Source: a virus. Taken from it: a stretch of DNA of 64,000 bases. A program made the position numbers and the translations under genes. This document shows, piece after piece, positions 4,842 through 61,904 of this stretch. Numbering within the stretch: position 1 is the stretch's first letter; every line of letters starts with the position of its first letter. Below the pieces are notes generated by a model. That model was not told where the DNA came from, made no database searches, and was given only the letters and a program-made list of their open reading frames with translations. The stretch is taken from the IMG/VR virus record IMGVR_UViG_3300029564_000003, positions 69,289 to 133,288 of that record; one strand, written 5' to 3'.

Positions 4842-5870
4842 TTAACCGTTGAAGGTAAACTTGCCGAAGCCGCGCTCAGGAAGCAGAAGACCGAGACCGA
4901 ACTTGGTCTGAACCTGAAGGTCGACAGAGCCATCGTTGCGCTTGCCAGACATATCCTCGGTAGTGCGGGTGTCACCGATAATCTCAAGCTTGATGGGCTT
5001 GGAATCACCAGCGATGATAAACACATCCTTGTCGTTCAGGGCGAACTCCATGGTGCCAGACTTGAAGGTCTGAGGAATCACCATAAGGTCGATGCCCTCC
5101 CAAGAGCCGATGGTGCCAGTGTTTGCACGCGCCTCCTTCTGAGAATCGGCGAACAGCTTGTCGGGAACAAGGTTGGCAACCTTGCGAAGAGCGGGCTTGG
5201 TGCCAGCGATGGTGACATCGGAACCGTTGGCGGTGGCGACGAAATCGCAAAGGCGGGCAAGCTCGTCAAGGCTGTTGCCAGAAGCGGTGAACTCATTCGC
5301 CACAGCATCGGAGACAGACTGGAACTGGGTGTAAATGCGGTCAGTCATATACTTGTTCATTGACTTGTAGACCTTGTCAATCACCTTCTCGAAGGGGATG
5401 ACACCGAGCAGCCAGCGCTCAAAGTCCTCGTAAACATGAATGAACATCCACTCAGAGGGTAGCTTGAAGGACGAACCGAGGTCGACCATCTGACGGTTGG
5501 TATCCCAGTGGTTGCCAGCAAACGTGGCGACGGTCAGGAAGCTAGAACCCTCAGAGTAGAACTCGGTATCATCACCGAGAGCACGGTTCTTGACCTCGAC
5601 GAAACGCTCGATGAACGGAGAGTTCATGATGTTCTCGCCGATAGAGGTGGTGACGACATCCTCGACAATCTCGAAGATGGCATCCTTGTTGCGACGCCAA
5701 GCCTGATACATGGTCATACCATGGGTAATCTCATCGTTAATCTTGTCGCGCAGGGCGTTCTGAAGCTCGAAAGTGCTCAGGCCGTCGGAGCCGGAGAAGT
5801 TGACGAGCGAAAGGTCGTGAGCCATATCAAAGGCCATGGACTCAGCGGCGCTAAAGTTAGTCTTAGGCAT
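4842..5870 (-). CDS. putative major capsid protein (HK97-fold-like)
   Basis: 342-aa ORF placed after the protease/scaffold and decoration genes in the canonical portal-protease-scaffold-MCP order; Gly-rich C-terminal half. Confidence 0.45.
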   Translation of the reverse strand: MPKTNFSAAESMAFDMAHDLSLVNFSGSDGLSTFELQNALRDKINDEITHGMTMYQAWRRNKDAIFEIVEDVVTTSIGENIMNSPFIERFVEVKNRALGDDTEFYSEGSSFLTVATFAGNHWDTNRQMVDLGSSFKLPSEWMFIHVYEDFERWLLGVIPFEKVIDKVYKSMNKYMTDRIYTQFQSVSDAVANEFTASGNSLDELARLCDFVATANGSDVTIAGTKPALRKVANLVPDKLFADSQKEARANTGTIGSWEGIDLMVIPQTFKSGTMEFALNDKDVFIIAGDSKPIKLEIIGDTRTTEDMSGKRNDGSVDLQVQTKFGLGLLLPERGFGKFTFNG

Positions 5871-5891
5871 AAATAATCTCCTCCTTTTCCA

Positions 5892-6425
5892 TTAAGCTAC
5901 GACACGAAGCTCGAACAGCTCGTAAGTGTCGCCGTAGGTGTGAGCGGTAGTGACAAGCGTGGCACCAAGGGTGCGCTTGCGCATAATCTTGCAATAAGAA
6001 CCAGACTCGGGCTGCTCGGCCTGAGCCTTGAAGCGACCAGAAGCGTCGGCAACGGCATAAGCGCCAACCTTTACCTGCTCGGCAGAATCAGAGGTGAAGC
6101 CAGCCTTGGAGATGCCAAACTCGTCGTTGCGAGCGAGCACGCGGACGCGGAAAACGGTACCAGCGGGAATGACGAAAGCGTCGCGGCGCTGGTTCACGGA
6201 GCGGGAAGTATCGGCGTCCCAGACGGGCTGGTCGACGATAACATAGGTGTGGTCTGCGGGAACACCCTGCTTAAACTTATAAACATGTGACATGCCCTCG
6301 GCAAGCTCGCCAAGGCCGCCAATCATGCCATTCTCAATATCCTCGGTAGCAACGCAGTCAAAGATGCGCTCGGCACCGATGGTGGACTGCATGTTCGTGG
6401 ACTCGAACACAGTACGAATAGCCAT
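5892..6425 (-). CDS. putative head decoration / auxiliary capsid protein
   Basis: 177-aa ORF between the scaffold and capsid genes. Confidence 0.3.
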   Translation of the reverse strand: MAIRTVFESTNMQSTIGAERIFDCVATEDIENGMIGGLGELAEGMSHVYKFKQGVPADHTYVIVDQPVWDADTSRSVNQRRDAFVIPAGTVFRVRVLARNDEFGISKAGFTSDSAEQVKVGAYAVADASGRFKAQAEQPESGSYCKIMRKRTLGATLVTTAHTYGDTYELFELRVVA

Positions 6426-11292: not shown

Positions 11293-12290
11293 GAGCTTTT
11301 TATCTCATGCTCTGGGGCTTTCGCCCATTTTCATCGACTTGTCATTTCAAGCCCAGCTTGGCGTACATTTTCGTTCGTTATTGAACGTCGGACACTCTTG
11401 CCAAGATTATATTTATTCACTTGGTACGCTCTACGGTGTCAACCAGCCTTTCGCAATCTGGTTGATTACCTCGGTATTGACATATAATTTTATTACTTAG
11501 CTTTTACCGATTTTATCCGATTTTATCAGGGCAATTTTATTTTATAAATTTCTATTTATATGCAAATCTTTATTGTTATCAACATAATCGAACTTTTCTT
11601 TTTTACGAGACAAACATATACAGTCGTCTGTGTAGATATATTTCTTAAATTTTTCTATATTATCTACACCATAAATATATATGCTACAAGCATTGCTTCT
11701 TTTATCCTTTCTTGGTTCGCCCACTTTAATTCCGTTATTTATCAATATGTCTCTAACAGAAATCAAAAAGTTTTCGTTGCCACAAAAAGAACAAGAATAA
11801 CTGTGCATTCTATATTTTTTGCCTCGTTCACTATGATAATAGTCGCCTTCTGTGTATGAAACGCATCCATCACCATCAAAATATCCACGTATAAAATCTC
11901 TGATATATTGTTCTGGAACAATATCATACGTTGGGAACTCCAATGTTAAACTTTTGCATGGCGTGCATCCGAGATTAATTAAATCTCTACACATCTTCGT
12001 GTAATTAATAACAATTCGATTTGCATTGTATTTACCTGCAATTTTCCTATCCTGTATAGGAACATTGCTTTCAAGCGAGTCTCTGAACTTGATTAGGTGG
12101 TCTATATCTTGACTTTGAAGCGTTATCTCTAACGACATAGACCTCAGTTCTTCGCCTTTATAGTATCTGGTAATACATCCATCTGCATATAAAAACCCAA
12201 GCCAATATGCTTTATCAGATGAATCAATTTTCTTGAAATAATCCTTATTGTAAGTATACTTACTCATTTGTTATTCCAATCGTTCGCGGC
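11293..12290 (-). mobile_element. intron (probably group I) interrupting terL, carrying a LAGLIDADG homing endonuclease gene
   Basis: ~1 kb AT-rich insertion between the two terL coding segments; exon 1 ends ...AARGQGKL then stop, and exon 2 resumes at about 11292; contains a free-standing HEG with its own start codon. Confidence 0.6.
11542..12267 (-). CDS. LAGLIDADG homing endonuclease (double-motif)
   Basis: Two LAGLIDADG motifs: LGFLYADGC and IRGYFDGDGCV; AT-rich codon usage unlike the flanking genes. Confidence 0.8.
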   Translation of the reverse strand: MSKYTYNKDYFKKIDSSDKAYWLGFLYADGCITRYYKGEELRSMSLEITLQSQDIDHLIKFRDSLESNVPIQDRKIAGKYNANRIVINYTKMCRDLINLGCTPCKSLTLEFPTYDIVPEQYIRDFIRGYFDGDGCVSYTEGDYYHSERGKKYRMHSYSCSFCGNENFLISVRDILINNGIKVGEPRKDKRSNACSIYIYGVDNIEKFKKYIYTDDCICLSRKKEKFDYVDNNKDLHINRNL

Positions 12291-14930: not shown

Positions 14931-15300
14931 AAAGCGAGCCTCTTTCGAGTCTTTTGTTTGTATAGCACCGAATGTTTTGGACTAAACTAACCCGACCCAT
15001 CGACTTACTAACCACCACAATGGATGGCAAAACAACCCTGATGGGTTGACATATGCGGATATTGCCCCATCCGCGAATATGCTGTAACATTCATCTATCC
15101 ATACACGGGGTGGTGCCGCAACAGTTCCAAGATATAGAACAATCGCGGCACCTAGCTAAGAAAGGTGTAGGAATATGAATGATTCCCGACGGGATAAGAC
15201 ACCCGTCTATGACGCGAAATGAATCGCGCCTGTAAATGCCGCAACCCGCTTACGCGGGTCACGAAAGTATCATAATCCGCAAATGCGGGTTACTTCATGT

Positions 15301-15642
15301 TTACTCATCGCCATCTGCGCCAGCCTTGAACAATTTCCCGCAATAATGTCGGGTGATGTTCGCCTTGGCTTTAATCTTGGCGATAGTTGTAATTGTCTTG
15401 CCAGTCAAGTTGTTGACCTGCGTCTGCTCTGGGATATACTGCGAGTCAATAGTGATTCCCTCGAACAAACGAATCGATATATCAGACTTCTCATCAGCGC
15501 TAGACAGAGCCTTGAAAATCTCTTCCTCGATTGCGTTGTATACATCCTCGACAACAGACTTCCTGATTCTGGCAGACCGAGCCGCCATCTTTATGATTTG
15601 AGCCTTGGTATAGACGGTCTTCGGCTTATCATTGTTTTCCAT
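15301..15642 (-). CDS. HU/IHF-like histone-like DNA-binding protein
   Basis: 113 aa; N-terminal KAQIIKMAARSARI...VEDVYNAIEEEIFKAL and the beta-arm region match the HU/IHF family pattern. Confidence 0.7.
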   Translation of the reverse strand: MENNDKPKTVYTKAQIIKMAARSARIRKSVVEDVYNAIEEEIFKALSSADEKSDISIRLFEGITIDSQYIPEQTQVNNLTGKTITTIAKIKAKANITRHYCGKLFKAGADGDE

Positions 15643-15827: not shown

Positions 15828-18788
15828 CTACACAGCGTTTTCCTCTCGTTTACGCTGTCGATATCTCTGCATCTTCAAACGCTTTAACTCTCTCTTATGT
15901 TCCTTCTGACACTCCTCGCAACGCTCGGTTGCAGAGTCGTACACGCTAACCTCGAACCACTCACCGCAATCAACGCACTGAACAGCCTTGGTTTGCGGAT
16001 TGAGCTTGTCAGACAGATTCTCGTAGATTACATCACCGTAGCACAACCACAGGGCTGTTTTGTTAGCAGACTTCTTGATTCCGTATAAGAACTTCACCAA
16101 GATGTCGACGACCTCTTGCTCGGTATATCCGAACTTAGACAATGCATCTCGAATCTTATCGGCGATGCGCTGATTCTTCATCTGGGTGCGCATATAACGC
16201 TCGCTCTTATCGGCCTTGCTAGATGACATCGCAGCATCGACGTTGAGATAATAAGCCTTATCGAACTTGCAATACTCGACGATGAGCGGGTCGGTTTCCT
16301 CCTCGATGATTCTTCCGTTGGATGTGAACGCGACATCGAACTCGATATTGGGGTCGTGCATCAACATCGCACAGTCTATTTTGCCGATTCCGAGTTTCCG
16401 CGTGTTGATTCTCGGATTCGGGATGACGGCCTCAAGCTTGTTGACGAAGCTGAGATTCGCATCTACGATTTGAGAATCTGTCTTGTCCTTCGCGTACTTG
16501 AAGAAGTGGGGGAGTGGTTGCCCTGTGAAGGCCGTCAGCTTCTTGTTCATATCCTTCGGACGCTCTGGTTTATAGAGGGTTTTTGCGTAATCGATAACGT
16601 AGTTGTTTTCCATACAAAGAATCTTGATTAGCTCGACAGCCTCCTTTTGCTCCTCAAGTGTTCCGTCGACAAACACGTCGCTGTTCCAAATCTTAGAGAT
16701 GTTGTTGCTGTAGATGCCGATGTTGCCACCGACGAACGCCGCATTCAATCCAGCGTATATCGCCTTGTTGTCGAGATGAACAGGGGATGCCTTCTTCATA
16801 TCGTAGTAAAGCGGGACGATATCGAACTTCTCGATGTTGCGCTTTGCCACGTCGATGATGGTCTTATCGGCCACCATGAGCAATTTGTCACCGTCGCAGT
16901 CAAATTGAAGCACCCTAGAAATAAGGTCTTTGCAGCTCGTATAAACAGCATCGGTACAATACCAGTTCCTCAGCTTATCACGACGCTCTTCATCGACACC
17001 GCGAGCGGCGACGTTCTTCCTTATCGCATGTTCCAAAAATAAGTGAGGAGACCTCAGACAATCAAGCTCATCGTTCTTCCTGAACAGCCAACAGAACACC
17101 TCGCCGTCATCGAGCAGCCCATTTGGATTGTCTGTACCCATGAACCAGTGTTCGCAAGCGGCATAGAAATCTGGGACTACGAATGTATACTTACCATGGA
17201 TATCGAGCTTTCCAGCCTTGCACCGCTTGATGATACTGTCCTTGATTCTCCTGATATGAGACTTCGTGTACTCGTCATTGATAAGCTCGGGGTATAACTC
17301 GATGCACTTCTGAAATGACGTCTTGCTCTTATTGTATGGCGTGATATCGAACATCGACTTCACGTTTCGAATAGATGAGCACATGTTCTCAAGCTTGTAC
17401 ACGGACTGTCGTGCTATCGAGGCAATCTCATCATCGGCGATATCGGTGAGCGACTGCAACATCTGGTAGTTGATGGTCGCGTCCTTTATCCGCTCTTCCT
17501 CCTCGTTTGTGAATCCTGCGGTGCATCCGTTGTCGTGGTACTTCTCCTTGTAATCATCCCAAGAGTCATAGAAACCCGAGAGCTTGAACTGACTCTTCGT
17601 GAATATCACCTGAATATCCTCATCGATTACGTCATGTTCCTCGCCGTAGATGTCCTTGATGATTGGCGAGCACCCATTTTCACGTATGAACTCGTCGAAA
17701 GGGAACGCGCACAGCAATCCCTTAATCCAAGGTATGCGCACCATCTTGTTGTTCTGCAAGATGCCGAACGCATTTGGCAGCATCATACCAGCTCCATCGG
17801 TATGCTCAATCTCACGATGGCCGCACTCTCGCGTCACGCTGTAATCGACATCGCTGACGAAGTCATAAGTTCCATATACCTCGGTCGCGAAGTCATCGAT
17901 GACGATGCACTTGTCGATATCAAACTCTTCCCACACATCGGTGGCAGAATTCGATAAGGCGTTGTAGGCGAGATACTTGTTCGGATTTATTCCACCCTTT
18001 GCATTGATATCATCGAGTGTCAAACCGCACATGATTGACTTCTCGCATCTGCGCCACACGGACTCCTTGACGAACACGCACTTCTTCGTTCGAATCTGAC
18101 CAGCGGAAGAGGTGAAGTAGATATACCTCTCACCCTTGTAGGTGAATCCGTTGAAAATCAAATCCTTGAGGACGTCGAAGTAGAACACCCGCACAATCAT
18201 GAAGTCATCGGTGAATTCGTCAATCTCCGCACCGATAGTCCTCGTGAAATACGAATCGAACACGGCGATTACGTCATCCTCGGACACAGTCGACTCGTCA
18301 AGCTTCCTGATGTGATGATGCCGGTTCGATGAATCGTTCGCCTCGACCTTGTTCGACAGGAGGGATAATAGCTTCTGCTTGACCTCGTTCGCCTTCTTAG
18401 TCTTCATATCCGCCAAGCTCTTGTAGTATGCGTAATCCACGGCGATGTCATTTACCGTGTCTGCATCGTCCCCGTGTATCGAGAAATCATACTCACCAGA
18501 CATCATGAGCTTGATATCCGACACGTCCACTCCGAACTCCGCCAGCTGAGACTCAAGCTGTCTGGTGCCAGTTATCGTTCTCTTGACACCGTTGGCGTTC
18601 ACTATGAACCCGCCGTTGACCAGCCTGTTGCGCTCAGCCCTCAGCTTGTGGTTGAGCATGTGGAGTCGGCGCTCGCGCTTGCTGTAGAAATTCGAGGTAT
18701 CTACATTGAGTATCTTCACCTGCTTATCTAGCGCCAATAAGAACACATCCTTCCATTTCCGAAACCTTTCTTTCCCCGTTTGAAACAA
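15828..18788 (-). CDS. large protein with DxDGD metal-binding motif and C-terminal zinc ribbon; candidate non-canonical single-subunit (two-barrel/YonO-like) RNA polymerase
   Basis: 986 aa; motif QFDCDGDKLLMV resembles the universal DxDGD catalytic loop of multisubunit-type RNAPs; C-terminal CVDCGEW...CEECQ zinc ribbon; first gene of the late-strand unit next to the divergent control region; the family assignment is inference. Confidence 0.35.
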   Translation of the reverse strand: MFQTGKERFRKWKDVFLLALDKQVKILNVDTSNFYSKRERRLHMLNHKLRAERNRLVNGGFIVNANGVKRTITGTRQLESQLAEFGVDVSDIKLMMSGEYDFSIHGDDADTVNDIAVDYAYYKSLADMKTKKANEVKQKLLSLLSNKVEANDSSNRHHHIRKLDESTVSEDDVIAVFDSYFTRTIGAEIDEFTDDFMIVRVFYFDVLKDLIFNGFTYKGERYIYFTSSAGQIRTKKCVFVKESVWRRCEKSIMCGLTLDDINAKGGINPNKYLAYNALSNSATDVWEEFDIDKCIVIDDFATEVYGTYDFVSDVDYSVTRECGHREIEHTDGAGMMLPNAFGILQNNKMVRIPWIKGLLCAFPFDEFIRENGCSPIIKDIYGEEHDVIDEDIQVIFTKSQFKLSGFYDSWDDYKEKYHDNGCTAGFTNEEEERIKDATINYQMLQSLTDIADDEIASIARQSVYKLENMCSSIRNVKSMFDITPYNKSKTSFQKCIELYPELINDEYTKSHIRRIKDSIIKRCKAGKLDIHGKYTFVVPDFYAACEHWFMGTDNPNGLLDDGEVFCWLFRKNDELDCLRSPHLFLEHAIRKNVAARGVDEERRDKLRNWYCTDAVYTSCKDLISRVLQFDCDGDKLLMVADKTIIDVAKRNIEKFDIVPLYYDMKKASPVHLDNKAIYAGLNAAFVGGNIGIYSNNISKIWNSDVFVDGTLEEQKEAVELIKILCMENNYVIDYAKTLYKPERPKDMNKKLTAFTGQPLPHFFKYAKDKTDSQIVDANLSFVNKLEAVIPNPRINTRKLGIGKIDCAMLMHDPNIEFDVAFTSNGRIIEEETDPLIVEYCKFDKAYYLNVDAAMSSSKADKSERYMRTQMKNQRIADKIRDALSKFGYTEQEVVDILVKFLYGIKKSANKTALWLCYGDVIYENLSDKLNPQTKAVQCVDCGEWFEVSVYDSATERCEECQKEHKRELKRLKMQRYRQRKREENAV

Positions 18789-19202
18789 TATTTGTTTTTA
18801 TATGTTTTCACTTTGTTTATCAACAAAAAACATTGTTTATAAACAAAAGCATCATAAAAACAAATACATTTTACAATTATAGCATATATATTCGCCAGTT
18901 AAAACCATCATCTATCACATCCATGGAAATAACATCGACATTCAACATGGCTAATAATACACATGCTTAATCGCGCACGTTGATATCCGTATACCCAGTT
19001 ATCAAAGTTTTATACGGTCGTATCTCTTCTTCACGAAATCTACATATAGCAACAACTAAAAGCAGTCACTTTGAAACTCGCGCCAAACTGATGGCGTAGT
19101 CTCGCCTTCGGCTCGCTACGCAGATGGGAGATAATCATACGGCCATTGGTTATAGCATACATCTATTGATTATACGATTGCAACCGTGATATCATCTTCG
19201 TC

Positions 19203-19270
19203 AAAACTTGTCACTTTGATTTCCTCGTTATAATATATATATAACGGTTTTTTCAAAGTGACAAGTTTTG
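19203..19270. repeat. 68-bp perfect palindrome, copy 1 (18-bp arms CAAAACTTGTCACTTTGA, centre CGTTATAATATATATATAACGG)
   Basis: Read directly from the sequence; identical second copy 191 bp downstream. Confidence 0.9.
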
Positions 19271-19393
19271 GAGTTGTATAATTTTGTGTTCATTCCATGA
19301 AGATGTTATATGAGTGTATAAAGTTTTAAGTTGTGGGTATAGAACCAACGACGACCAGAGATGTTTCATCGACGGTCGTTTTTAAGGAAATTT

Positions 19394-19461
19394 AAAACTT
19401 GTCACTTTGATTTCCTCGTTATAATATATATATAACGGTTTTTTCAAAGTGACAAGTTTTG
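19394..19461. repeat. 68-bp perfect palindrome, copy 2
   Basis: Identical to 19203..19270. Confidence 0.9.
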
Positions 19462-19490
19462 CTTGTATAACGATAAGGAGCCTTTGTCTT

Positions 19491-19646
19491 ATGCTGAATA
19501 ACATAAAGAATTATATGCGTTACGCCCTAAGAGATGAAATATCTCATTTTTACAGAGAATCAGTTCCTTACGTAGAATCATCTCTCATCCCCGAGGCGGA
19601 GCGCAGCGGAGACCTCGGCATCAGTTTAGCGCTAATTTCAAAGTGA
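19491..19646 (+). CDS. hypothetical small protein (51 aa)
   Basis: AAGGAG RBS 10 nt upstream of the ATG; lies between the palindromes and the iterons. Confidence 0.25.
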   Translation: MLNNIKNYMRYALRDEISHFYRESVPYVESSLIPEAERSGDLGISLALISK

Positions 19647-19770
19647 CAAGTTTGGCAACTTGAAGTGACAAATTCTTATGAATTTGAAGTGACAAACTTT
19701 TACAAGTTTGAAGTGACAAGTTTAACAACTTAAACAATAAGTTTGGCAACTTAAACAACCAAACACGTAA
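19636..19770. repeat. iteron array: 4-5 direct repeats of GAAGTGACAA(G/A)TT at ~24-bp spacing, plus GTTTGGCAACTT x2
   Basis: Seen in sequence; shares the GTGACAA core with the palindrome arms and with a single site at ~19063. Confidence 0.85.
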
Positions 19771-19788
19771 CGGCTAAGGAATGGTGGT

Positions 19789-20736
19789 ATGGCGAACGAT
19801 ATAGATGTTAGCGGGGTGATTGTGGGAGTCACCTATAAGTACAGAGAACTGTGCAATATCCTTATGGACGAGCCTTGTACTGGTAAACAGAAGATATTAC
19901 AACTAAAGCGTTGGTCTGGCTACATGAGTTGGGAGAACCCGACTACACAGAAGTACAAGATAACAGAAGTGTACGATGAGCCTACGGTTTCATCTAGGGG
20001 TGGTAAGAGGAGAAACAGCGGAAGGAAGAAGAAATTATACGATGAGTTCCTTTGGTTGTTGAACGCATTCATGCACAGGGAGTTCAACAGAAACACCTCT
20101 GGTGGACACGATGGCAAATTGTGTTCTTGCAGATTCACCGGAAACGAGATATCGAAATACTTCGGTCTGTACAACGACAACTTCCATAACGCGGTATCAG
20201 AATACTCGAAGAATCACGATGATGGGGTAGATGAGTTCTCGAAGGCGTGGTATGAGGTGTCGAAGTTGATAGCGGACATGCGCAGGAGATGGATATACAA
20301 CAGGATTGAGGACATCGACGGAGTCAAGTTCGGTTACGGAGTGATAGCGTATAAGGACAAGGATAGGTCTGAATTCGATTATCTTGACGATAAACTCGGC
20401 GATTGGAACTCGTACATGGCGAGATACATGGAGAGGCACAAGTTGAAGAACGAGGGAATGGTCGCAGATAGGGGAATGTATCTGGACATGATTAAGAACA
20501 TATCCCTCAACTTCGATGATTACGTCAGCGTCGAGAGAGTCAGGAGATTCGATTACGACATCGACATCTTGAAGGAGTATGAATTCGATGAGTATGAGGA
20601 TTACAAGAGGAAGTTCAACGATGCCGTGGTTGATGGCTTGAAGAGACACTTCGACAAGAAGGTGAGTTTAGGTGGATATGAGAATGCATACGATGGCTTC
20701 GTCAAAGTCGTCGTCGATGAATACGTGATGTTGTAA
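19789..20736 (+). CDS. hypothetical early protein (first gene of the plus-strand arm)
   Basis: 315 aa; AAGGAATGGTGG RBS; positioned immediately after the iteron array, consistent with a regulator or initiator; no recognisable motif. Confidence 0.5.
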   Translation: MANDIDVSGVIVGVTYKYRELCNILMDEPCTGKQKILQLKRWSGYMSWENPTTQKYKITEVYDEPTVSSRGGKRRNSGRKKKLYDEFLWLLNAFMHREFNRNTSGGHDGKLCSCRFTGNEISKYFGLYNDNFHNAVSEYSKNHDDGVDEFSKAWYEVSKLIADMRRRWIYNRIEDIDGVKFGYGVIAYKDKDRSEFDYLDDKLGDWNSYMARYMERHKLKNEGMVADRGMYLDMIKNISLNFDDYVSVERVRRFDYDIDILKEYEFDEYEDYKRKFNDAVVDGLKRHFDKKVSLGGYENAYDGFVKVVVDEYVML

Positions 20737-20805
20737 ATGATGTTATAAAACGACTATGGTCGTAAGACAGCTATGACAATCAGATAATACAATTGGATAT
20801 TTTTT

Positions 20806-22495: not shown

Positions 22496-22522
22496 GTTTC
22501 ACGTGAAACAGTTCACAAACAG
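22496..22522 (+). promoter_or_regulatory. operator-like element: perfect 14-bp palindrome GTTTCACGTGAAAC + AGTTCACAAACAG
   Basis: Seen in sequence; near-identical copy at 22927..22953. Confidence 0.6.
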
Positions 22523-22873: not shown

Positions 22874-22926
22874 CACAGACCCTGGTAGCCCGTCAAACGG
22901 GCGGGCTACACCTACAATTCGCCAAC

Positions 22927-22953
22927 GTTTCACGTGAAACCATTCACAAACAG
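22927..22953 (+). promoter_or_regulatory. operator-like element GTTTCACGTGAAAC + CATTCACAAACAG (copy 2)
   Basis: Directly upstream of the RBS of the 22966 gene. Confidence 0.6.
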
Positions 22954-26773: not shown

Positions 26774-27257
26774 ATAAAATGCTACCAACGAATAACCAAT
26801 TTAATGAACACATTATGAAGATTCAATGAATACACAGGCAACACTTGACAACCACAACGCAATCAGGTTGTCAAGCAATCCGACACGGAAAAATCTAATT
26901 ATGTATTTATGCACAGTTCTCTACACAACTCAACCCAAACAACAAAACCGCAGGTAAACATAGCCGTTAGAATCGCGTGTATGGGAATATACATAACATA
27001 TGCCTATACTGTCTAGGATATGCAAACATCGCCCCAAATAGGCACATCACAGAGACGTACAAGACCATGCGATTGCGGAAGATTCGGACGATATGCACAG
27101 ACAACGAGCCAAACAACAACCATATGTGTAGCAATTGTGATGAAAAACATATACATAGTTTTCATCTTGACACACAGCGACAAAACCACATACAATATAG
27201 CCAACGCAACCAACAAAGGTTGCTAACGCAACCAACCGATAAGAGAGGACATACACC

Positions 27258-27572
27258 ATGCGTGAGTACACCGTAAGCGTTTACGCCATGAAGCACGATG
27301 ATTTGTTCGGCGGGTTTGAGACCGACTACATGAGCAGCCCAATCATTGAGCATAGGTACCCCGACAAGCAGCAAGCCGCCTATGATTTCGCCTTGCTCAA
27401 GGAGTTCCCGCGTGAGTTGTACCACACTGCCAAGGCGTGCGGAGGTAAGCCCGTGGGGTACGTTGCATTTCTTGAGTGTGTGCAAGACGAAGATATCTGC
27501 GGGTATCTTGACGTTGAGACTATCGATAGCACATCGTACACCACGGATGATTACATGCTTGAGCATAACTAG
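27258..27572 (+). CDS. hypothetical protein (104 aa)
   Basis: GAGAGGACATACACC RBS. Confidence 0.5.
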   Translation: MREYTVSVYAMKHDDLFGGFETDYMSSPIIEHRYPDKQQAAYDFALLKEFPRELYHTAKACGGKPVGYVAFLECVQDEDICGYLDVETIDSTSYTTDDYMLEHN

Positions 27573-27581
27573 CAGCAATCA

Positions 27582-27610
27582 GCCTGCCTATATGGTGGGC
27601 TTTTTCTTGC
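27582..27610 (+). terminator. probable rho-independent terminator
   Basis: GCCTGCC/GGTGGGC stem (with G-U pairs) + TTTTTC. Confidence 0.35.
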
Positions 27611-27715
27611 AGCTATAGTTATGAAGATTATATGAATATACAAACCACACTAGACACAAGCGTTATCAGTGTTAATATATAGACACGTTAAGCCACGACC
27701 GAAAGGACGCACACC

Positions 27716-27946
27716 ATGGACAACGTTACCACGCTTTATGTTTCAGAGGAAAATGAGTACGGCGAGATTCAAGACTATGAGATTGCAGTCGATACCGATT
27801 GGCTCAAAAATGAAATCATCGAGGATTTCGGTTTCAGCACTATCGAGGAGTTTATGGACGAGTACACCAGTGATGAATCATCGGAGGTTTATTGTATTGC
27901 TTCTATCACTGGACACCTTGCGAAGATTTTGCCCCCGTTGATTTAA
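27716..27946 (+). CDS. hypothetical acidic protein (76 aa)
   Basis: GAAAGGACGCACACC RBS. Confidence 0.5.
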   Translation: MDNVTTLYVSEENEYGEIQDYEIAVDTDWLKNEIIEDFGFSTIEEFMDEYTSDESSEVYCIASITGHLAKILPPLI

Positions 27947-27990
27947 GATGCATAACGGATTAAGAGTTTATCTCACAGAGAGGAATAATA

Positions 27991-28251
27991 ATGCAGTATT
28001 ACGCCATTGAGTACACCGAGACGCGCACGGCAACCTTCAATGTTCAGGCTGATAGTTATGAGGACGCTTGCGAGCGTTTCGCTAACATGCTTAACAACGA
28101 TGATATCATTTACAATGTACTTGACAATACGGACTTTGTGAACACGGATACTAATTGTCTTGGAAGCATTGGCGACGAGCCAGATGATTGTTGCGATGAC
28201 ACGATTACCGATGATGATTACAAGATGGCTATTGGTATCAAGGAGGATTAA
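27991..28251 (+). CDS. hypothetical acidic protein, paralog A1 (TNCxGxIGD family)
   Basis: Paralogous to 31418..31669 (shared ADSxEEAxER...NTDTNC.G.IGD...DYK.IG pattern). Confidence 0.55.
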   Translation: MQYYAIEYTETRTATFNVQADSYEDACERFANMLNNDDIIYNVLDNTDFVNTDTNCLGSIGDEPDDCCDDTITDDDYKMAIGIKED

Positions 28252-28253
28252 CC

Positions 28254-28493
28254 GTGTGCAAGTGGGCCGTGGTTTGCGTTTGCGCCTACGATAATCAGGT
28301 TTCGAGTGTTGACTTGTTCGATAGTTATGAGGACGCTTCTAAGTTCATGGAAAGCGACGCGGCGGAATCATACGAGGAAATGAAGGAGCACAACGCTAAT
28401 ATTTATATGGAGAATTGCGGGCAATGCGCTGAAATTGTTATCAATGGAAGTACCGATTATTTCTGGAGTATCGAGCCTACTAATATCCATTAA
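28254..28493 (+). CDS. hypothetical protein, paralog B1 (WAVVC...AEIVING family)
   Basis: Paralogous to 31996..32253. Confidence 0.55.
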   Translation: MCKWAVVCVCAYDNQVSSVDLFDSYEDASKFMESDAAESYEEMKEHNANIYMENCGQCAEIVINGSTDYFWSIEPTNIH

Positions 28494-28500
28494 AAGTAAT

Positions 28501-28533
28501 GAGAATGGGCGCGTATAACACGCGCCCTATTTT
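28501..28533 (+). terminator. rho-independent terminator
   Basis: GGGCGCGT-ATAAC-ACGCGCCC + TATTTTT. Confidence 0.7.
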
Positions 28534-28602
28534 TCTTGTCTCATAAAGTTATGAAGAAGTTATGAACTTAACAATCACACTAGACACAACACGGCACAGT
28601 GC

Positions 28603-28690
28603 TATTATATAGTTAATCGGTAGTCGCAGGTTGGCAATACCAACCCAAGGGGCAGATAAGAGCCGTGATTTATTGAGCTACAGTTGTGCG
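28603..28690 (+). repeat. ~90-bp conserved intergenic element, copy 1 (TATTATATAGTTAATCGGTAG...GAGCCGTGATTTAT..AGCTACAGTT)
   Basis: Near-identical copy at 35102..35180; partial copy ~25826..25900. Confidence 0.75.
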
Positions 28691-29038
28691 TATTTGTAAA
28701 ACACATGCACAACATCGAACTAGTGTTCTATCTGACTACATAAGCATAAGCCAATGAGAGCCGATTTAAGGCGTTGTATTTCCGATACTGGACACTTACA
28801 CCACACACGCCACGAACGCCCGAAATATCGCAACGTAAAGCGTTTTAGTACGTTAATCCTGGTATCAGTACGGCATTGATAGAGCGCATATATACGCGAT
28901 TGGCGCAATGGTTCTAAAGATTGGGATATGTGTTGAAGTTGTGAAGATGAAATATCCCGATGAGCAACGCCAAGACATGCGATATAGTGTAGTCACGCCG
29001 AGCGGATAGGGCGCGGCACGATTGAAAAGAGGATATTA

Positions 29039-29206
29039 TGTGGAGCAACTTCGATGACGATGATTTCATCATCATTTTCAGCAACGGCGAGTATCTTTAC
29101 GAGGGTCTTGTAAAGGACATGCCCGAGAATTTCAAGCATGATTCATACGATTGGTACGCGCTTGGAAGGACGGAGCGTGCCGATTACCTGTTGATTGAGT
29201 TCTAAC
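29039..29206 (+). CDS. hypothetical protein (55 aa)
   Basis: AAGAGGA RBS; followed by a terminator. Confidence 0.4.
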
Positions 29207-29250
29207 CACGAGAGGGCGCGGGATACTTAGGTACCCGCGCTTTTCTTTTG
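29207..29250 (+). terminator. rho-independent terminator
   Basis: GCGCGGG(A)TAC...GTACCCGCGC + TTTTCTTTT. Confidence 0.6.
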
Positions 29251-29325
29251 TGTATTATTATGTAGATTATATGAATGATAATGATGTGTGGTATAGTGTA
29301 TTCAACGTTATTAGAAAGGATTGAC

Positions 29326-29592
29326 ATGCACGATACGAAGCTCACCTTTGATAACTGCACGTTGTTCGATTGCTGGAACCAGCCGCATATGCTCATTCCC
29401 ATTGACATGTTCGGAATCCCAATCTACCCAGATGATGTGGTGTATGACGAGTGCGACCGCGATAAGACCAAGCCTATTAAGGTCATGGCAATTCGCACAT
29501 ATGATGACGAGGATGATACGCAGCAACATATCATCGACTATGAGGGCAATTGGCATTATGGAGACGAGTGTTTTCATGAATGGTATTGCTAA
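29326..29592 (+). CDS. hypothetical protein (88 aa)
   Basis: GAAAGGATTGAC RBS before internal ATG. Confidence 0.45.
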   Translation: MHDTKLTFDNCTLFDCWNQPHMLIPIDMFGIPIYPDDVVYDECDRDKTKPIKVMAIRTYDDEDDTQQHIIDYEGNWHYGDECFHEWYC

Positions 29593-29594
29593 AT

Positions 29595-29630
29595 ATGGCG
29601 CGGGTGCAAAGGCATCCGCGCTTTTCTTTA
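29595..29630 (+). terminator. rho-independent terminator
   Basis: GCGCGGGTGC...GCATCCGCGC + TTTTCTTT. Confidence 0.6.
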
Positions 29631-29712
29631 CAAAAACAATTGTGAAGAAAACATGAATACGCTTGATGTGTGATATAGTATAGACGTGTTGAGCCAAGAG
29701 AAAGGAAGCGAC

Positions 29713-40337: not shown

Positions 40338-41132
40338 ATGGGAAATGCGGCATACGATTTCAATCGGAATAACTATTACAAGAAGAACAACATCATCGAC
40401 TTCGACTTTCGAGCGAAGCAGGTCGTGGCACCGAAGGCGGAAGCGCCGACTGGCGAGTACGACAATCGAGCGGGAAAGAAGACCGAGGTTTACGCAATCC
40501 GCACGGATGAAGAGGTCAAGGCTATGATTGACGTGCTGGACAAGCATATCGAGGAGGCCAACACGCCTACGCTCAAGCGTGTTGCGGCCAGGAATAAGAT
40601 GCTGTTCATCGTGGGAATCAACGTTGGTCTGCGCGCCAGCGACTTGCGCCTGTTGACTTGGGATTTCTTTTTTAAACAGATGCCAGATGGAAAATTTGAG
40701 TTCCGCGATGGATATAGTTTGCGACCCAAGAAGACGGCGCGATATCAGAAGCATGTCAATCTCCATTTCAATTCCGCCGTTAAGAAGGTTATCAGCTGGT
40801 ATGTTGAGCAGTATCCTATTGACGATATCAAGGGTTATGTTTTCCGTTCACGTCAGCTTGATAAGCCAATCACTGTAAATGCCATGTGCCGAGTTGTGAA
40901 AGAAACGGGTGAAGAAGCTGGAATCAAACAGCCGCTTGGCAGTCATTCGATGCGCAAGACTCTTGGATATAGGATGTATCATGACGCAGATAACAAGACG
41001 GAAGCCCTTATTATTCTTCAGTCAATCTATGGGCATAGCGCACCAAGTACAACGCTCAAGTACATTGGCATATCAAATGATGAAATCGAGAGTGCGTTCG
41101 GTGATTTGAACATCGGTATTGATTATATTTAG
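40338..41132 (+). CDS. int: tyrosine recombinase / phage integrase (XerC/D-like, 264 aa)
   Basis: R-box GLRASDL, HxxR (HSMRKT) and catalytic Tyr context LKYIG; TAGGAGGTT RBS. Confidence 0.75.
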   Translation: MGNAAYDFNRNNYYKKNNIIDFDFRAKQVVAPKAEAPTGEYDNRAGKKTEVYAIRTDEEVKAMIDVLDKHIEEANTPTLKRVAARNKMLFIVGINVGLRASDLRLLTWDFFFKQMPDGKFEFRDGYSLRPKKTARYQKHVNLHFNSAVKKVISWYVEQYPIDDIKGYVFRSRQLDKPITVNAMCRVVKETGEEAGIKQPLGSHSMRKTLGYRMYHDADNKTEALIILQSIYGHSAPSTTLKYIGISNDEIESAFGDLNIGIDYI

Positions 41133-44650: not shown

Positions 44651-44734
44651 CCGAGGCTGGCGAAATTGGCAGACGCATCGGACTTAAAATCCGACGGTAG
44701 CAATACCATACGAGTTCGACTCTCGTGCTTCGGA
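44651..44734 (+). tRNA. tRNA-Leu (anticodon TAA), class II with long variable arm; no encoded CCA
   Basis: Manual fold: 7-bp acceptor CCGAGGC/GCTTCGG, U8, 3-bp D-stem with 11-nt D-loop, anticodon stem TCGGA/TCCGA, loop CTTAAAA (U33, A37), 15-nt variable arm, T-arm ACGAG-TTCGACT-CTCGT. Confidence 0.6.
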
Positions 44735-44897
44735 CGTGTCACAATTGACACTGTTGTTGGAGTGCGCGAGGTGGGCGCATCGTATAAGTTGACAAGACAG
44801 GCGACTTATAATCGCCAGATGCAGGAGCGTGGCCTGCTGCGCCTACCTCCCGTACTCCAACAATTCGGAAATTTTATTGGCTAAGAAAGGAAACACA

Positions 44898-45827
44898 ATG
44901 CTCTTTTTCATCGCAGGTTGCCTCTTGGCAATCATTGGAATCGTGCTTACCATCGCTCTTGTTCGAGCAAACAAGAAGAACGACAACGATTCTACGACCC
45001 CTATCGGCGGACTTGTTGTTCTTGCCATCGGTCTCGTTCTTATCCTGCTGTCTAGCATTTATACTCAGGATGTTGGTGAGACTGTTGTTCTTCGCAACCT
45101 TGGCGGTTCCGTTGCTGGCCATTCCGAGGATGCTGGTTTCCACTTCAAGGCGCCTTGGCAGGACACTATCAAGTATGATACCCGTAACAACCTTATCAAT
45201 ATGTACGGTGACACGGAATATTCTTACGATGGTGGTTCGGCTCAGGGTTCTAAGGTCACTATCAACGATGCGTCTGGTGCCAAGGCGAACATTGATATTC
45301 AGGTGAATTATTCGCTTGACCCGTCCACTGCGGAATATCTTTACAGTGAGTATGGCACTCAGACCGTGTTCACTCAGAACTACGTGTCGCAGGATGTTCG
45401 CTCTGTCGCTCGTGAGCAAGCTGGCAAGTTCGACACCATCACGCTTCTCACCGACCGCGCTCAGTACACCAAGGCAATCACCGATGCGCTGACCGCAAAG
45501 TGGGATAAGATTGGACTGACCGTTGAGCAGGTCACTGTTCAGGATATCTCTTATCCTCAGTCCATCACCGATGCATATGCTCGCTCTCAGGAGGCCGAGG
45601 TTGAGAAGCAGACCGCCCTCAACGAGCAGGAGACCGCTAAGGTTAAGGCTGAGACAAAGGTCGTTGAGGCTGAGAAGGAGGCGGAGGCCAACCGCAAACT
45701 TGCCGAGTCTCTTACTCCCGAGGTTTTGACGAAGCAGTACTATGATACTCTTTCTGAGCTTGGCAAGAATGGCAATGTTGTCGTGACCGATGGTCGTAGC
45801 ACTCCCATTGTTAACGTCGGTAAGTAA
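44898..45827 (+). CDS. SPFH/band-7 (prohibitin/HflK-C-like) domain membrane protein
   Basis: N-terminal TM helix, then an SPFH-like core and an Ala/Glu/Lys-rich coiled-coil (QEAEVEKQTALNEQETAKVKAETKVVEAEKEAEANRKLAE) typical of band-7 proteins. Confidence 0.6.
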   Translation: MLFFIAGCLLAIIGIVLTIALVRANKKNDNDSTTPIGGLVVLAIGLVLILLSSIYTQDVGETVVLRNLGGSVAGHSEDAGFHFKAPWQDTIKYDTRNNLINMYGDTEYSYDGGSAQGSKVTINDASGAKANIDIQVNYSLDPSTAEYLYSEYGTQTVFTQNYVSQDVRSVAREQAGKFDTITLLTDRAQYTKAITDALTAKWDKIGLTVEQVTVQDISYPQSITDAYARSQEAEVEKQTALNEQETAKVKAETKVVEAEKEAEANRKLAESLTPEVLTKQYYDTLSELGKNGNVVVTDGRSTPIVNVGK

Positions 45828-46414
45828 TATGTTATTCATCGCCTCGGTATCCTTCGGGTAGTCCGTGAAAGATGATATGGCTTTGGCTATATCACGAAAG
45901 CGAAACTGTCAGAGCTAAAACCTTTGCTGGTGGTATAGGCTAAACCAGCACCTTCTGTGGAATATATTGAGCCACTCCGCCGCATTTGCAGTCAGTTCAA
46001 GCAAACGAAGAATATTAGAGAATTCCTTCATAGCTCTTGTTGGCAACGGTTAAATATATTCCACAGAGGGTTTCATCTGCAAGGCGCACATGTACGCGGC
46101 ACTATAACCACTTGTCCATATGGCTTTCTCCTTACTACTATTTGCTGTTACTTATTATTGTGGTTTTCCTCTCTTTGTGACGTGTATGTTTTTCCTTTCT
46201 CTCGCGTAATTAACTCTCTTTGGCCCGTGCGTGTGCGTCTTGCAGATGAAATCTCTCTGATATGCATCTCTACCGTGTGTAGATGATGCCCTCTGGAAGC
46301 GTCTAATCGGCGCTTCCTGTTTGGAGTGGATAACCAGTGGGGAACTGGGCTGGACTGCTAATCCAAGCGTGCCATTTGTGGCATTGGTGTCGGATACCAA
46401 TCGCTCCGCCAAAT

Positions 46415-46494
46415 GCGCCTATAGGGTAATGGAGAACCCACCTGTCTTCTAAACAGGAATTTTAATCTCAGTTCGACTCTGAGTAGGCGTACCA
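46415..46494 (+). tRNA. tRNA-Arg (anticodon TCT), CCA encoded, unusually long 9-nt variable loop
   Basis: Manual fold: acceptor GCGCCTA/TAGGCGT (G1-U72), U8, D-arm GGGT-AATGGAGA-ACCC, anticodon arm CCTGT-CTTCTAA-ACAGG, T-arm CTCAG-TTCGACT-CTGAG, discriminator A + CCA. Confidence 0.55.
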
Positions 46495-61801: not shown

Positions 61802-61904
61802 AATATGAATAATGTATGTAGGCTTGTTTACTTAGTAAGCGAGTCTACATACTGCTAACTATATATGCTATAAATATATGACATGACGAAAAGGAGATTG
61901 CCTT

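Follow-up and report, generated by a model that had tools for sequence, protein, structure and literature searches.

Conserved palindromic units between divergent operons of an uncultured SPbeta-like phage: a candidate promoter-operator control region

The window, which is the whole 64,000-nucleotide stretch of DNA that was analysed, derives from an uncultured, SPbeta-like phage with a YonO-type RNA polymerase gene. This gene lies on the minus strand and is separated by a gap of ~1 kb from a plus-strand gene encoding a protein of 315 amino acids (Table 1). The mechanical open reading frame of the polymerase extends to 18788; alignment of its N-terminus with those of relatives pointed to a start at TTG 18737, which leaves 970 codons. 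The polymerase showed ~40% identity to SPbeta YonO and 44% identity to the Clostridium phage D-1873 homologue, and matched PF05183 and phrog_8308. The leftward gene block encodes the polymerase, HU, an exonuclease, terminase and portal, while the rightward block consists of small genes followed by replication genes. The primase gene (phrog_47) is found at 58593-59675, and a DnaB-like helicase is also encoded by the phage. The gap coincides with the cumulative GC-skew minimum of the window.

A search of 50,697 phage records with 18700-20800 returned no DNA similarity, and no relatives were found in species genomes or JGI metagenomes (two scans each). The comparison set comprised 13 distinct related phage contigs (handles beginning with L) encoding homologues 35-91% identical to the 315-aa protein; the clade is one of uncultured phages of roughly 120-135 kb. 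Wherever the relatives' contigs span the region, the order of polymerase (minus strand), palindromes and 315-aa homologue (plus strand) was retained. The polymerase gene adjoined the flank elements described below in 12 of the 13 relatives, and in L011 it was absent from the 5 kb fetched on that side. The preliminary description of the region as a control region is supported; it sits between divergent operons. It defines a conserved, testable control module beside a YonO-type polymerase gene.

Table 1. Features of the gap and of the two genes that border it.
Feature	Position	Strand	Remarks
YonO-type single-chain RNA polymerase gene	15828..18737	-	likely start TTG 18737, GGAAGGA before it
AT-rich imperfect palindrome, 78 nt	18789..18866		presumed 5' leader of polymerase gene
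TGCTATAAT, extended -10 promoter-like element into polymerase gene	18876..18884	-	syntenic motif TATARCATATA
Left flank element	19063..19121	-	hairpin 19121-19094, box CATCAGTTTGGCGC 19093-19080, half-site TTTCAAAGTGACTG 19076-19063
Palindrome unit 1	19202..19271		18-bp arms, TTGTCA in both orientations, (TA)n centre
Terminator-like hairpin followed by TTTTT, between units	19351..19384	+	-8.4 kcal/mol, z = -2.1
Palindrome unit 2	19394..19461		identical to unit 1
51-codon ORF with AAGGAG ribosome-binding site	19491..19646	+	doubtful gene
Right flank element	19591..19653	+	hairpin 19591-19618, box CATCAGTTTAGCGC 19619-19632, half-site TTTCAAAGTGACAAGTTT 19636-19653
Array of four direct arm-type half-sites and two degenerate units	19636..19770	+	AAGTGACAA at 19641, 19663, 19687 and 19711
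315-aa multi-winged-helix protein gene	19789..20736	+	uncharacterised family; probable arm binder

An alignment of 19203-19270 with 19394-19461 showed 100% identity over 68 nt, as previously claimed, and the flanks of the two units differ. The units had been called perfect palindromes, which was wrong in detail, as their overall complementarity was 81%. The arms of unit 1 form a perfect inverted repeat (19202-19219, CAAAACTTGTCACTTTGA, and 19253-19270) of the length first described, but those of unit 2 are 17 bp long. The centre had also been thought to be palindromic; the only pairing within its 33 nt was a 7-bp inner stem (CGTTATA/TATAACG) with a 7-nt loop and 6x6 internal loops. Folded as a single DNA strand, the unit gave -21.6 kcal/mol compared to -3.7 in shuffles (z = -10.5). 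Across the 13 relatives, 1-3 palindromes of about 70 bp preceded the homologue of the 315-aa gene, and each combined an A-tract and TTGnnn arms with a (TA)n centre at 16-18 bp from the arm. This centre, 13-19 bp long and AT-rich as in an unwinding element, was present in every palindrome examined.

The motif AAGTGACAA occurred eight times in the 64 kb, with all copies between 19208 and 19719 (~510 bp); 0.71 copies were expected, and none of 100 shuffles reached eight. The bare 7-mer GTGACAA had 11 further copies in the window outside 19208-19719, which is at chance level, so that only the longer motif is specific. A GTGACAA core had been reported at ~19063; the site there is TTTCAAAGTGACTG on the minus strand, which has GTGAC and not GTGACAA. 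Of the four to five direct repeats at ~24 bp first described, four copies were recovered, spaced 22, 24 and 24 bp, but the sequence given for them, GAAGTGACAA, is exact in three only, the first copy being AAAGTGACAA. Tandem Repeats Finder reported a period of 24 with 2.5 copies at 19660-19719. The relatives L002/L003, whose 315-aa homologue is 91% identical, have one full copy and degenerate TAACAA repeats. No tandem array was present in the other relatives, among which L014 carries a single additional arm copy, 29 nt beyond its palindrome. Comparison with related phages, a check that had been suggested, thus showed that the palindromes are kept but that the tandem array is not. Iterons of an origin would be expected as three or more direct repeats of 17-22 bp with helical phasing that relatives share, and on this count the interpretation of the array as iterons is not supported.

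The arm motif recurs without a following -10 in both flank elements and in the array, and all arm copies within one genome are of the same variant. Judged from these sequences, the motif behaves like a protein-binding site, which supports the earlier suggestion. It is hardly credible that the array and the second palindrome arose by recent neutral duplication, or make up a miniature inverted-repeat mobile element, and lack a function of their own. The identity of the units between differing flanks, the absence of the array from the closest relative and a 77-nt inverted repeat around the whole cluster would agree with such an origin; however, 13 relatives, with protein identities as low as 35% and with diverged sequence, have this plan at the corresponding place, and the window contains no further copies.

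Between the polymerase gene and the left flank element, the 78-nt palindrome contains two TTGTTTAT(C/A)AACAA boxes (18813-18826 and 18833-18846) and folds at -17 kcal/mol compared to -6.5 in shuffles (z = -5.5). TATARCATATA, of which there are only two copies in the 64 kb (0.05 expected), was found upstream of the polymerase gene at the syntenic place in the window, L004, L005, L018 and L019. The relatives' sequences showed no counterpart of the terminator-like hairpin. The 51-codon ORF was dismissed as the conserved feature: it has 33 codons in the 91% relative, following a 13-codon deletion and a frameshift, and is absent in more distant ones. Its 3' part has an inverted copy on the left, which lies in a different frame.

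The 315-aa protein has three domains, and its residue 33 starts a predicted recognition helix that precedes a beta-wing. The whole-protein phylogeny does not follow arm type. This mismatch was at first counted against the protein as the binder, and a column-wise test reversed that. Alignment column 65, which corresponds to residue 33, was the only column specific to the TATCC-arm group and one of five columns specific to the GTGAC-arm group. Asp33 was found with a T-A arm base in 4/4 loci, and other residues with T-G in 11/11 (T-A in 0/11); these 15 related loci, two of which were fetched afterwards as tests, amount to about three independent contrasts. As residue 33 covaries with one arm base, the 315-aa protein probably binds the palindrome arms, in agreement with its earlier nomination as the likely binder. 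We propose a one-residue/one-base recognition rule and a probable DNA-binding role for this unannotated protein family. At 50% identity the family falls into about 1,100 clusters, and other proteins also make use of its N-terminal domain. For proteins that have only this domain in common with the family, the Pfam context was limited to one HNH endonuclease and the only PHROGs match was phrog_36702, of unknown function. A tblastn search with the 315-aa protein against phages and plasmids gave no matches.

We give an even chance to the interpretation that the region consists of bidirectional sigma-A-type promoter-operator units autoregulated by the 315-aa protein, and that it forms the hub controlling divergent early transcription in an SPbeta-like phage. 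Every ~70-bp palindrome would be a pair of sigma-A-type promoters firing in opposite directions. The A-tract and the TTGnnn hexamer of each arm would provide an UP element and a -35, and the shared (TA)n centre would provide two -10 hexamers side by side, at 16-18 bp from the respective arm. TCAA-N3-T[G/A]NNCAA, the outer arm sequence, overlaps the -35 and would be the binding site of the 315-aa protein, the product of the first rightward gene. Because of this overlap the protein would regulate its own promoter as well as transcription to the left, in the simplest case by blocking the -35. On this view the GTGACAA "iterons" would be additional direct half-sites within the leader of the gene for the binder itself, and would represent an expansion, specific to this lineage, that reinforces autoregulation. 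The repeats, their conservation and the protein-DNA covariation are seen in the sequences; promoter activity and the sign of this regulation we infer.

The geometry of the units is consistent with this promoter-operator interpretation. A consensus scan picked up TTGTCA-17-TAATAT on the plus strand, and TTGTCA-17-TATATA is present on the minus strand, both with modest scores (9/12). Of 44 halves tabulated, most pair an arm TTGnnn with a TA-rich hexamer at 16-18 bp, the -35/-10 distance of a sigma-70/sigma-A bidirectional promoter, which is thus found on both strands. The arm hexamers were TTGTCA, TTGAAC, TTGACA, TTGAAA, TTGTCC, TTGTCG and TTGACT. Where the centre has an insertion (about 28 bp in L007/L010 and about 100 bp in L020), the spacing of each half is kept while the arm-to-arm distance is changed; L020 also has a lone half-unit. 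The proposal of divergent promoters is therefore upheld as sigma-70-like geometry in both directions, but TATAAT, which had been placed on both strands, is on the plus strand only (19229-19234), the minus strand having TATATA, TATTAT and TATAAC. The same scan found promoter-like sites to be no commoner here than in shuffles (5 vs 4.6), and -10 matches are cheap because the centre is AT-rich. TATCC-type arms give a poor -35 (TTAGGA), and the 17-bp spacing is not kept in L011. Leftward promoters in the palindromes are not required, as the polymerase gene has its own conserved TGCTATAAT promoter-like element. At three domains, the 315-aa protein is also large for a simple repressor. If only the promoter-operator interpretation holds, the region belongs to an ordinary class of element, though its form is unusual.

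The left flank element is the left arm of a 77-nt inverted repeat (74%) with 19571-19647, which brackets both palindromes; this repeat and the neighbouring YonO-type polymerase were overlooked in the preliminary description. The left hairpin reads GCGTAG-CGA-GCC-GAA-GGC-GAGA-CTACGC and the right one CCGAGG...GC-GCA-GC...CCTCGG, and the box that follows was found at only these two places in the 64 kb. GC hairpins with GNA or GNRA loops flank the palindromes in most of the relative loci and are often exactly GCGAAGC or CCGAAGG. Most loops are GNA triloops and some are GNRA (GTAA, GGAA, GCAA); the stems, of 2-7 bp, have internal loops. Among the stems listed, all pairs are Watson-Crick and none G-U, and the two halves covary (half-swap permutation test). 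Single-sequence fold z-scores of these short hairpins were weak (+0.9 to -4.4). In every case the hairpins lie on the outward (sense) strand, where they follow the outward-facing promoter halves and precede the first genes. The left hairpin is absent in L013/L014, and in L011 the module is still symmetric though there is no leftward gene, which also speaks against the promoter-operator interpretation.

Any role of these hairpins would be a presumptive one. That they act in RNA, as leaders of both divergent transcripts that load an antitermination or stabilising factor for long operons in the manner of lambda nutL/nutR, we consider unlikely. Their constant sense-strand position, the GNRA loops and the long operons would suit such a function, and hairpins do lie in both presumed leaders; however, no boxA and no N-like protein were found, most loops are GNA triloops, which are notable in DNA rather than RNA, and G-U pairs are lacking among the listed stems. 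RNAalifold returned no consensus structure from MAFFT alignments of the flank elements, since stem and loop lengths differ between loci. Only tRNAs in the window exceeded the gathering score in Rfam 15, with sub-threshold microRNA-hairpin matches alone in the region itself; searching by E-value likewise brought up nothing relevant. The left element of L011, moreover, has no leftward gene to serve.

The main rival interpretation, which we regard as possible though clearly the weaker, is a replication origin. The winged-helix protein would be the initiator, its inverted sites would lie on either side of a (TA)n unwinding element, the direct copies would be iterons, and the opposite-strand mini-hairpins would be single-strand initiation (priming) signals like those of RSF1010 oriV. 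Such an origin may also have promoter activity, from which the initiator gene is expressed. The strictly (TA)n centre is kept in all relatives, and GCGAAGC and CCGAAGG are "mini-hairpin DNA" sequences, as reported at the G4 primase site and at RSF1010 ssiA (PMC13037366). The hairpins would lie on the lagging-strand template of outward-moving forks, and their Watson-Crick stems with covarying halves, the symmetry of the L011 module, the position at the GC-skew minimum and the phage's own primase and DnaB-like helicase all favour an origin. Against it, the tandem array is absent from the 91% relative and elsewhere, the replication genes lie at a distance of about 37 kb, the GC skew switches where gene orientation does, and L013/L014 lack the left hairpin. 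The fixed TTG-to-TATA spacing of 16-18 bp would also have no obvious reason at an origin. A milder form of the proposal that follows, in which the hairpin-plus-box elements are primase signals of a new origin-and-initiator family, we count under this origin interpretation and hold to be equally possible.

By analogy with phage N4, the hairpin-plus-box elements might instead be single-stranded hairpin promoters for the phage's YonO-type polymerase, driving the polymerase gene itself and the rightward genes; we consider this distinctly improbable. N4 early promoters include mini-hairpins with a GNA cap (PMC13037366), the promoter sequence of YonO is not known (PMC5467207), and in each direction the elements precede the first gene, beside the polymerase gene in 12 of 13 relatives. 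However, there are only two copies in 64 kb and none upstream of late genes, the SPbeta region with a mapped YonO start shows no such element, L011 has the elements with no polymerase gene within 5 kb, and YonO is unrelated to the N4 enzyme. It would similarly be a long shot that the paired elements are ssDNA initiation signals of the YonO-type two-barrel polymerase, with the winged-helix protein and the easily melted (TA)n palindromes aiding extrusion; if true, this polymerase family would gain its first defined promoter type. The paired mini-hairpins are candidates for either the origin or the polymerase signals of SPbeta-like phages.

Some bidirectional sigma-70-type promoters share a symmetric -10 region, with the operator of an autoregulator overlapping. 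The units resemble these in their divergent reading from one AT-rich centre with a -35-like hexamer on each side at 16-18 bp, and in having the regulator gene first downstream, with its candidate sites over the -35. They differ in that the units of the window clade are 68-72 bp long, are repeated 1-3 times and have symmetry that extends through the spacer, with -10 hexamers that are adjacent rather than overlapping and with a candidate binder that is a 315-aa multi-winged-helix protein of an unknown family. In the iteron replicons of plasmids (F RepE, R6K pi, pPS10 RepA), the protein binds direct iterons as a monomer, whereas its dimer occupies an inverted operator at the rep promoter. The same site is likewise direct and inverted beside a winged-helix gene here, and the 315-aa protein gave weak fold matches to RepE and pi; however, no Rep_3 sequence signal was found in it, and the array is in one lineage only.

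In SPbeta, the yonP/yonO-yonR region also has a regulator gene that is transcribed divergently from the yonO operon, about 1 kb apart from it, and the yonO operon promoter is bound by a repressor, as proposed for the window phage. SPbeta was nevertheless rejected as a model, as its yonP-yonR gap and yonN-yonK spacer show neither such palindromes nor the hairpin-plus-box. SPBRE operators, a 15-bp element over about 10 promoters, are bound by MrpR in SPbeta (PMC10516654). These are dispersed, whereas the window motif is confined to one gap, and the proteins of the two systems are unrelated.

The flank hairpins are similar to phage N4 early promoters in having a short GC stem and a GNA triloop upstream of early genes (PMC13037366). 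An N4-type hairpin promoter would have a 5-7 bp stem with a 3-nt purine-centred loop; in the window clade GNA loops are frequent, but the stems are 2-7 bp with internal G/A loops, some loops are GNRA, a palindromic box is added and there are only two elements per genome region. The polymerase is YonO-type (PF05183) and not a T7-like virion RNA polymerase. Mini-hairpin DNA is so far known from primase sites and N4 promoters.

RSF1010 oriV, in the outline given by PMC13037366 (citing Honda et al. 1991), comprises iterons for RepC and an AT-rich stretch, with ssiA and ssiB located on opposite strands. The window clade differs in that its iterons are not conserved and its sites are mostly inverted ones within palindromes; homology to RepC, RepA or RepB' is absent, and the region belongs to a phage of about 125 kb. 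In common with RSF1010, the phage encodes its own primase and helicase, and the region combines direct repeats of a candidate initiator site and an AT-rich element with two inverted hairpin signals of the CCGAAGG mini-hairpin type, one on each strand, capped by GCC-GAA-GGC (left) and GC-GCA-GC (right).

The palindrome region of the window lies in a gap of ~1 kb between two divergent gene blocks, since the gene of a YonO-type single-chain RNA polymerase and the minus-strand genes downstream of it (HU-like, exonuclease, LAGLIDADG endonuclease, large terminase and portal) are read leftward and the genes from 19789, beginning with that of the 315-aa multi-winged-helix protein, are read rightward. 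After many small ORFs, the rightward genes encode an integrase-fold protein, tRNAs and an RNA ligase, and further on a Sak4-like protein, a DnaB-like helicase and a primase. The polymerase had ~40% identity to SPbeta YonO and 44% to its Clostridium phage D-1873 homologue, and comparison with relatives placed its start at a TTG at 18737. No GenBank phage gave a DNA match to the region. The non-coding spacer between the HU-like and exonuclease genes was dense with GC hairpins (for example GACCCGC-GTAA-GCGGGTT) and matches in position the SPbeta yonN-yonK spacer, where a YonO start has been mapped and an unannotated RNA lies (PMC5467207). The 264-aa integrase-fold protein matches tyrosine integrases in the catalytic fold only (PF00589, phrog_216) and could, by analogy with SPbeta, be a MrpR/YopR-type recombinase-fold repressor. 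The GTTTCACGTGAAAC repeats sit in a ~2-kb stretch with few called genes after the 315-aa gene, and most relatives had no called genes in the corresponding stretch. The motif TTATGAAGATTATATGAAT, which recurs between small early genes, may mark gene starts or act in regulation.

Coordinates of features in the window and, where a locus is named, in related metagenomic contigs (L numbers) encoding homologues of the 315-aa protein
Feature	Position	Strand	Remarks
LAGLIDADG endonuclease gene	11542-12267	-	adjoins large terminase gene
Spacer with GC hairpins	14931-15300	-	
HU-like gene	15301-15642	-	
YonO-type polymerase ORF, 986 codons	15828-18788	-	PF05183, phrog_8308 matches
AT-rich imperfect palindrome, 78 nt	18789-18866		two TTGTTTAT(C/A)AACAA boxes; fold z = -5.5
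Extended -10 TGCTATAAT of polymerase gene	18876-18884	-	conserved in five loci
Extended -10, L004	5196-5206		
Extended -10, L005	5076-5086		
Extended -10, L018	3658-3668		
Extended -10, L019	3577-3587		
Second window copy of TATAGCATATA	61862-61872	-	
Left flank element	19063-19121	-	
Right flank element	19591-19653	+	
Inverted repeat, 77 nt	19065-19141 / 19571-19647		74%
Palindrome unit 1	19203-19270		
Palindrome unit 2	19394-19461		
Direct half-site array	19636-19770	+	
315-aa protein gene	19789-20736	+	
27-nt repeat with perfect palindrome GTTTCACGTGAAAC	22496-22522, 22927-22953		431 nt apart
Conserved part of GTTTCACGTGAAAC stretch	22884-22951		91% in L002
Conserved part of GTTTCACGTGAAAC stretch	22884-22909		96% in L004
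TTATGAAGATTATATGAAT motifs	26808-29658		at ~26814, 27620, 28550, 29258, 29640
264-aa integrase-fold protein gene	40338-41132	+	
Three tRNA genes	44651-46494		Leu-TAA, Ile-TAT, Arg-TCT
HNH endonuclease gene	46536-47138	+	
Extra ORF, L006	867-1196		109-131 aa in the three loci
Extra ORF, L018	3990-4355		
Extra ORF, L019	3979-4374		
Module of L011 (ERR10447102 contig)	4868-6314		palindrome, both hairpin elements, 437-aa homologue

The two 68-nt units were 100% identical, as the preliminary description had claimed. It had also called them perfect palindromes; the 18-bp inverted arms are indeed perfect (copy 1) but the whole units are not, and pairing in the 33-nt centre was limited to a 7-bp inner stem around a 7-nt loop. 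Copy 1 folded as single-stranded DNA at -21.6 kcal/mol (z = -10.5). TATAAT, reported on both strands, was found on the plus strand only, and the site near 19063 has GTGAC rather than the GTGACAA core ascribed to it. There were eight copies of AAGTGACAA in the 64 kb against 0.71 expected, all inside 19208-19719. The array was recovered as four direct copies at 22, 24 and 24 bp spacing; its conservation among relatives was not. L002 and L003, whose homologue is 91% identical, had the first copy only, followed by degenerate TAACAA repeats, and other relatives had a single arm-like half-site ending each flank element (L014 with one extra arm copy). The four-copy array is thus a conserved single site that has expanded locally.

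Homologues of the 315-aa protein were present in metagenomic assemblies, from which 13 distinct related loci were fetched (35-91% identity to the window protein). Where the contig extends far enough, the order polymerase (-), gap, homologue (+) was found in all loci except L011, and every covered gap contained one to three palindromes of ~68-73 bp, all built alike from an A-tract, TTGnnn and an inner TTGA, followed by a 13-19-bp (TA)n centre. It is scarcely credible, given this recurrence, that the repeats are a neutral duplication or a mobile element. At position 1, the short metagenomic contigs L002, L003 and L024 end precisely at the midpoint of a palindrome; the units probably interrupt assembly, as a hairpin repeat would. 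Nothing resembling the palindromes was seen in the SPbeta yonP-yonR gap at the same position. Three loci encode an extra ORF in the interval separating the polymerase gene from the palindromes, with only faint HTH_Crp_2 and HTH_36 matches (E ~0.02-0.04), which is not in the window. In L011 the neighbours of the module are a resolvase, a PycTM (Pycsar) gene, a tyrosine integrase and host genes; the 5 kb of sequence retrieved on that flank held no polymerase gene, so the module can travel without it.

The 315-aa protein, named in the preliminary description as the candidate binder, had no sequence match in Pfam, PHROG or PDB, and that proposal gained support from residue 33, which follows the arm variant across 15 loci. 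Arm copies inside one genome are all of the same variant, and arm-type half-sites also occur without a following -10, in the flanks and the array. Whole-protein similarity does not track the variant: the 77% identical proteins of L018 and L019 accompany TATCCTA and TGGACAA arms respectively, and the window and L011 proteins (37% identical) both accompany GTGACAA. Alignment column 65 (residue 33) does track it, being the sole column specific to the TATCC group (Asp) and one of five specific to the GTGAC group (Lys or Arg), which also include residue 37 of the same helix. In an AlphaFold2 model (pLDDT 83), residue 33 opens helix 33-42, which in the N-terminal winged helix comes before the beta-hairpin wing. 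Two additional Asp33 proteins were fetched afterwards as tests. That of L025 had TATCCTG and TATCCTA arms, and that of L024, which shares 82% identity with L004's Asn33 protein, had TAGTCAA arms as against TGTTCAA in L004. Over the 15 loci, Asp33 occurred with T-A at one arm position in 4/4 and other residues with T-G in 11/11 (T-A in 0/11); Fisher's exact test gave p ~7e-4 with relatedness ignored, and there are approximately three independent contrasts between close relatives. A putative chemical basis is that Asp could accept a hydrogen bond from the adenine amino group, and Lys, Arg or Asn could donate one to guanine. The arms are therefore likely to be sites of the neighbouring protein, as judged from this covariation. 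Its N-terminal winged-helix domain (profile positions 6-81) turns up in hundreds of proteins (75-608 aa) that are otherwise unrelated; among those designated P0071-P0172, P0072 is an HNH/NUMOD4 endonuclease and several match phrog_36702 (function not annotated).

The arms and centre together directly support a sigma-A promoter geometry at the sequence level. A consensus scan detected TTGTCA-17-TAATAT in both units, and most of 44 tabulated halves had an arm TTGnnn hexamer (TTGTCA, TTGAAC, TTGACA, TTGAAA, TTGTCC, TTGTCG or TTGACT) with a TA-rich hexamer at 16-18 bp. Centre insertions of ~28 bp in L007 and L010 and ~100 bp in L020 altered the arm-to-arm distance and left each half with its own TTG-to-TATA spacing; as L020 also carries a lone half-unit, this favours two independent half-promoters rather than one dimer-bound palindrome. 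Against a promoter, TATCC-type arms make a poor -35, the spacing is broken in L011, and the polymerase gene already has a conserved extended -10 (TGCTATAAT or TGYTATAAY, 45-140 nt upstream in five loci), which suggests a host-type promoter of its own. Also against a promoter, the sites that the consensus scan called promoter-like in the region were not in excess over shuffles. The 78-nt imperfect palindrome begins approximately where a transcript from the extended -10 of the polymerase gene would start and could be a leader hairpin or operator of that gene; L004 and L005 showed no counterpart. With arms as protein sites and sigma-A geometry combined, we propose with moderate confidence an autoregulated bidirectional promoter-operator, for which the array would supply extra operators within the leader of the binder gene.

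Overlooked in the preliminary description was an inverted repeat bracketing the palindromes, each arm of which, read outward, has a GC hairpin, then the box CATCAGTTT(A/G)GCGC and then the half-site TTTCAAAGTGAC. A 51-codon ORF that overlaps the right arm was rejected as a conserved feature; it is truncated in the closest relative and the left arm is in another frame, so the conserved part of the repeat is not a protein. In most loci the GC hairpin, always on the outward-reading strand, lies immediately 5′ of a near-palindromic box (mostly ATAA(G/C)TTAT, but ATCAGTAT.GCGAT for the group of the window), with an arm-like TCAA half-site ~12 nt after it. The box is confined to the flanks; the window, L004, L005 and L006 have two copies apiece, one to the left and one to the right of the palindromes. 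The left element was absent from L013 and L014. Apical loops were C-GNA-G (14) or C-GNRA-G (4) in 18 of 20 tabulated hairpins, often exactly GCGAAGC or CCGAAGG, and outer stems varied between loci, remaining Watson-Crick in those listed (GCGTAG/CTACGC, CCGAGG/CCTCGG, CAGT/ACTG, CGAC/GTCG, CCGTGG/CCACGG, TTGACC/GGTCAA, GTTGC/GCAAC). Single-sequence fold z-scores were weak and RNAalifold gave no consensus structure for the elements. When 3′ halves were exchanged between instances, the mean energy rose from -4.39 to -2.21 kcal/mol and 0/2000 permutations reached the observed value, which supports selection on the pairing. GCGNAGC and GCGNNAGC are "mini-hairpin DNA", found at the G4 primase site, RSF1010 ssiA (CCGAAGG) and N4 early promoters (Kimoto and Hirao, PMC13037366). 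Action at the DNA level and at the RNA level both stand as readings. Nut-like RNA leaders are improbable, and hairpin promoters of the YonO-type polymerase very improbable. Both flank elements are present in L011, where there is no leftward gene.

A replication origin is the main rival; it is less likely than the promoter-operator and takes more assumptions. In its favour are the (TA)n centre, the pair of mini-hairpins, the several winged helices of the 315-aa protein, the symmetry of the module in L011 and the coincidence of the cumulative GC skew minimum with the gap; against it, the iterons are not conserved, the 315-aa protein has no Rep sequence signal and the replication genes are distant. 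Some origins of replication depend on transcription, and the two models are compatible in that sense.

Among known systems, the window element would work like a divergent promoter-operator with an autoregulator, and its layout resembles RSF1010 oriV and iteron replicons. It differs from iteron origins in lacking conserved iterons and a Rep family sequence signal, from N4 promoters in polymerase family and from SPBRE/MrpR in that its sites are not dispersed. The components are individually familiar, but no description is known of their combination: palindromic units in repeated copies, a probable binder of an uncharacterised family with a proposed residue-base rule, and flanks with paired mini-hairpins, all adjoining a YonO-type polymerase gene.
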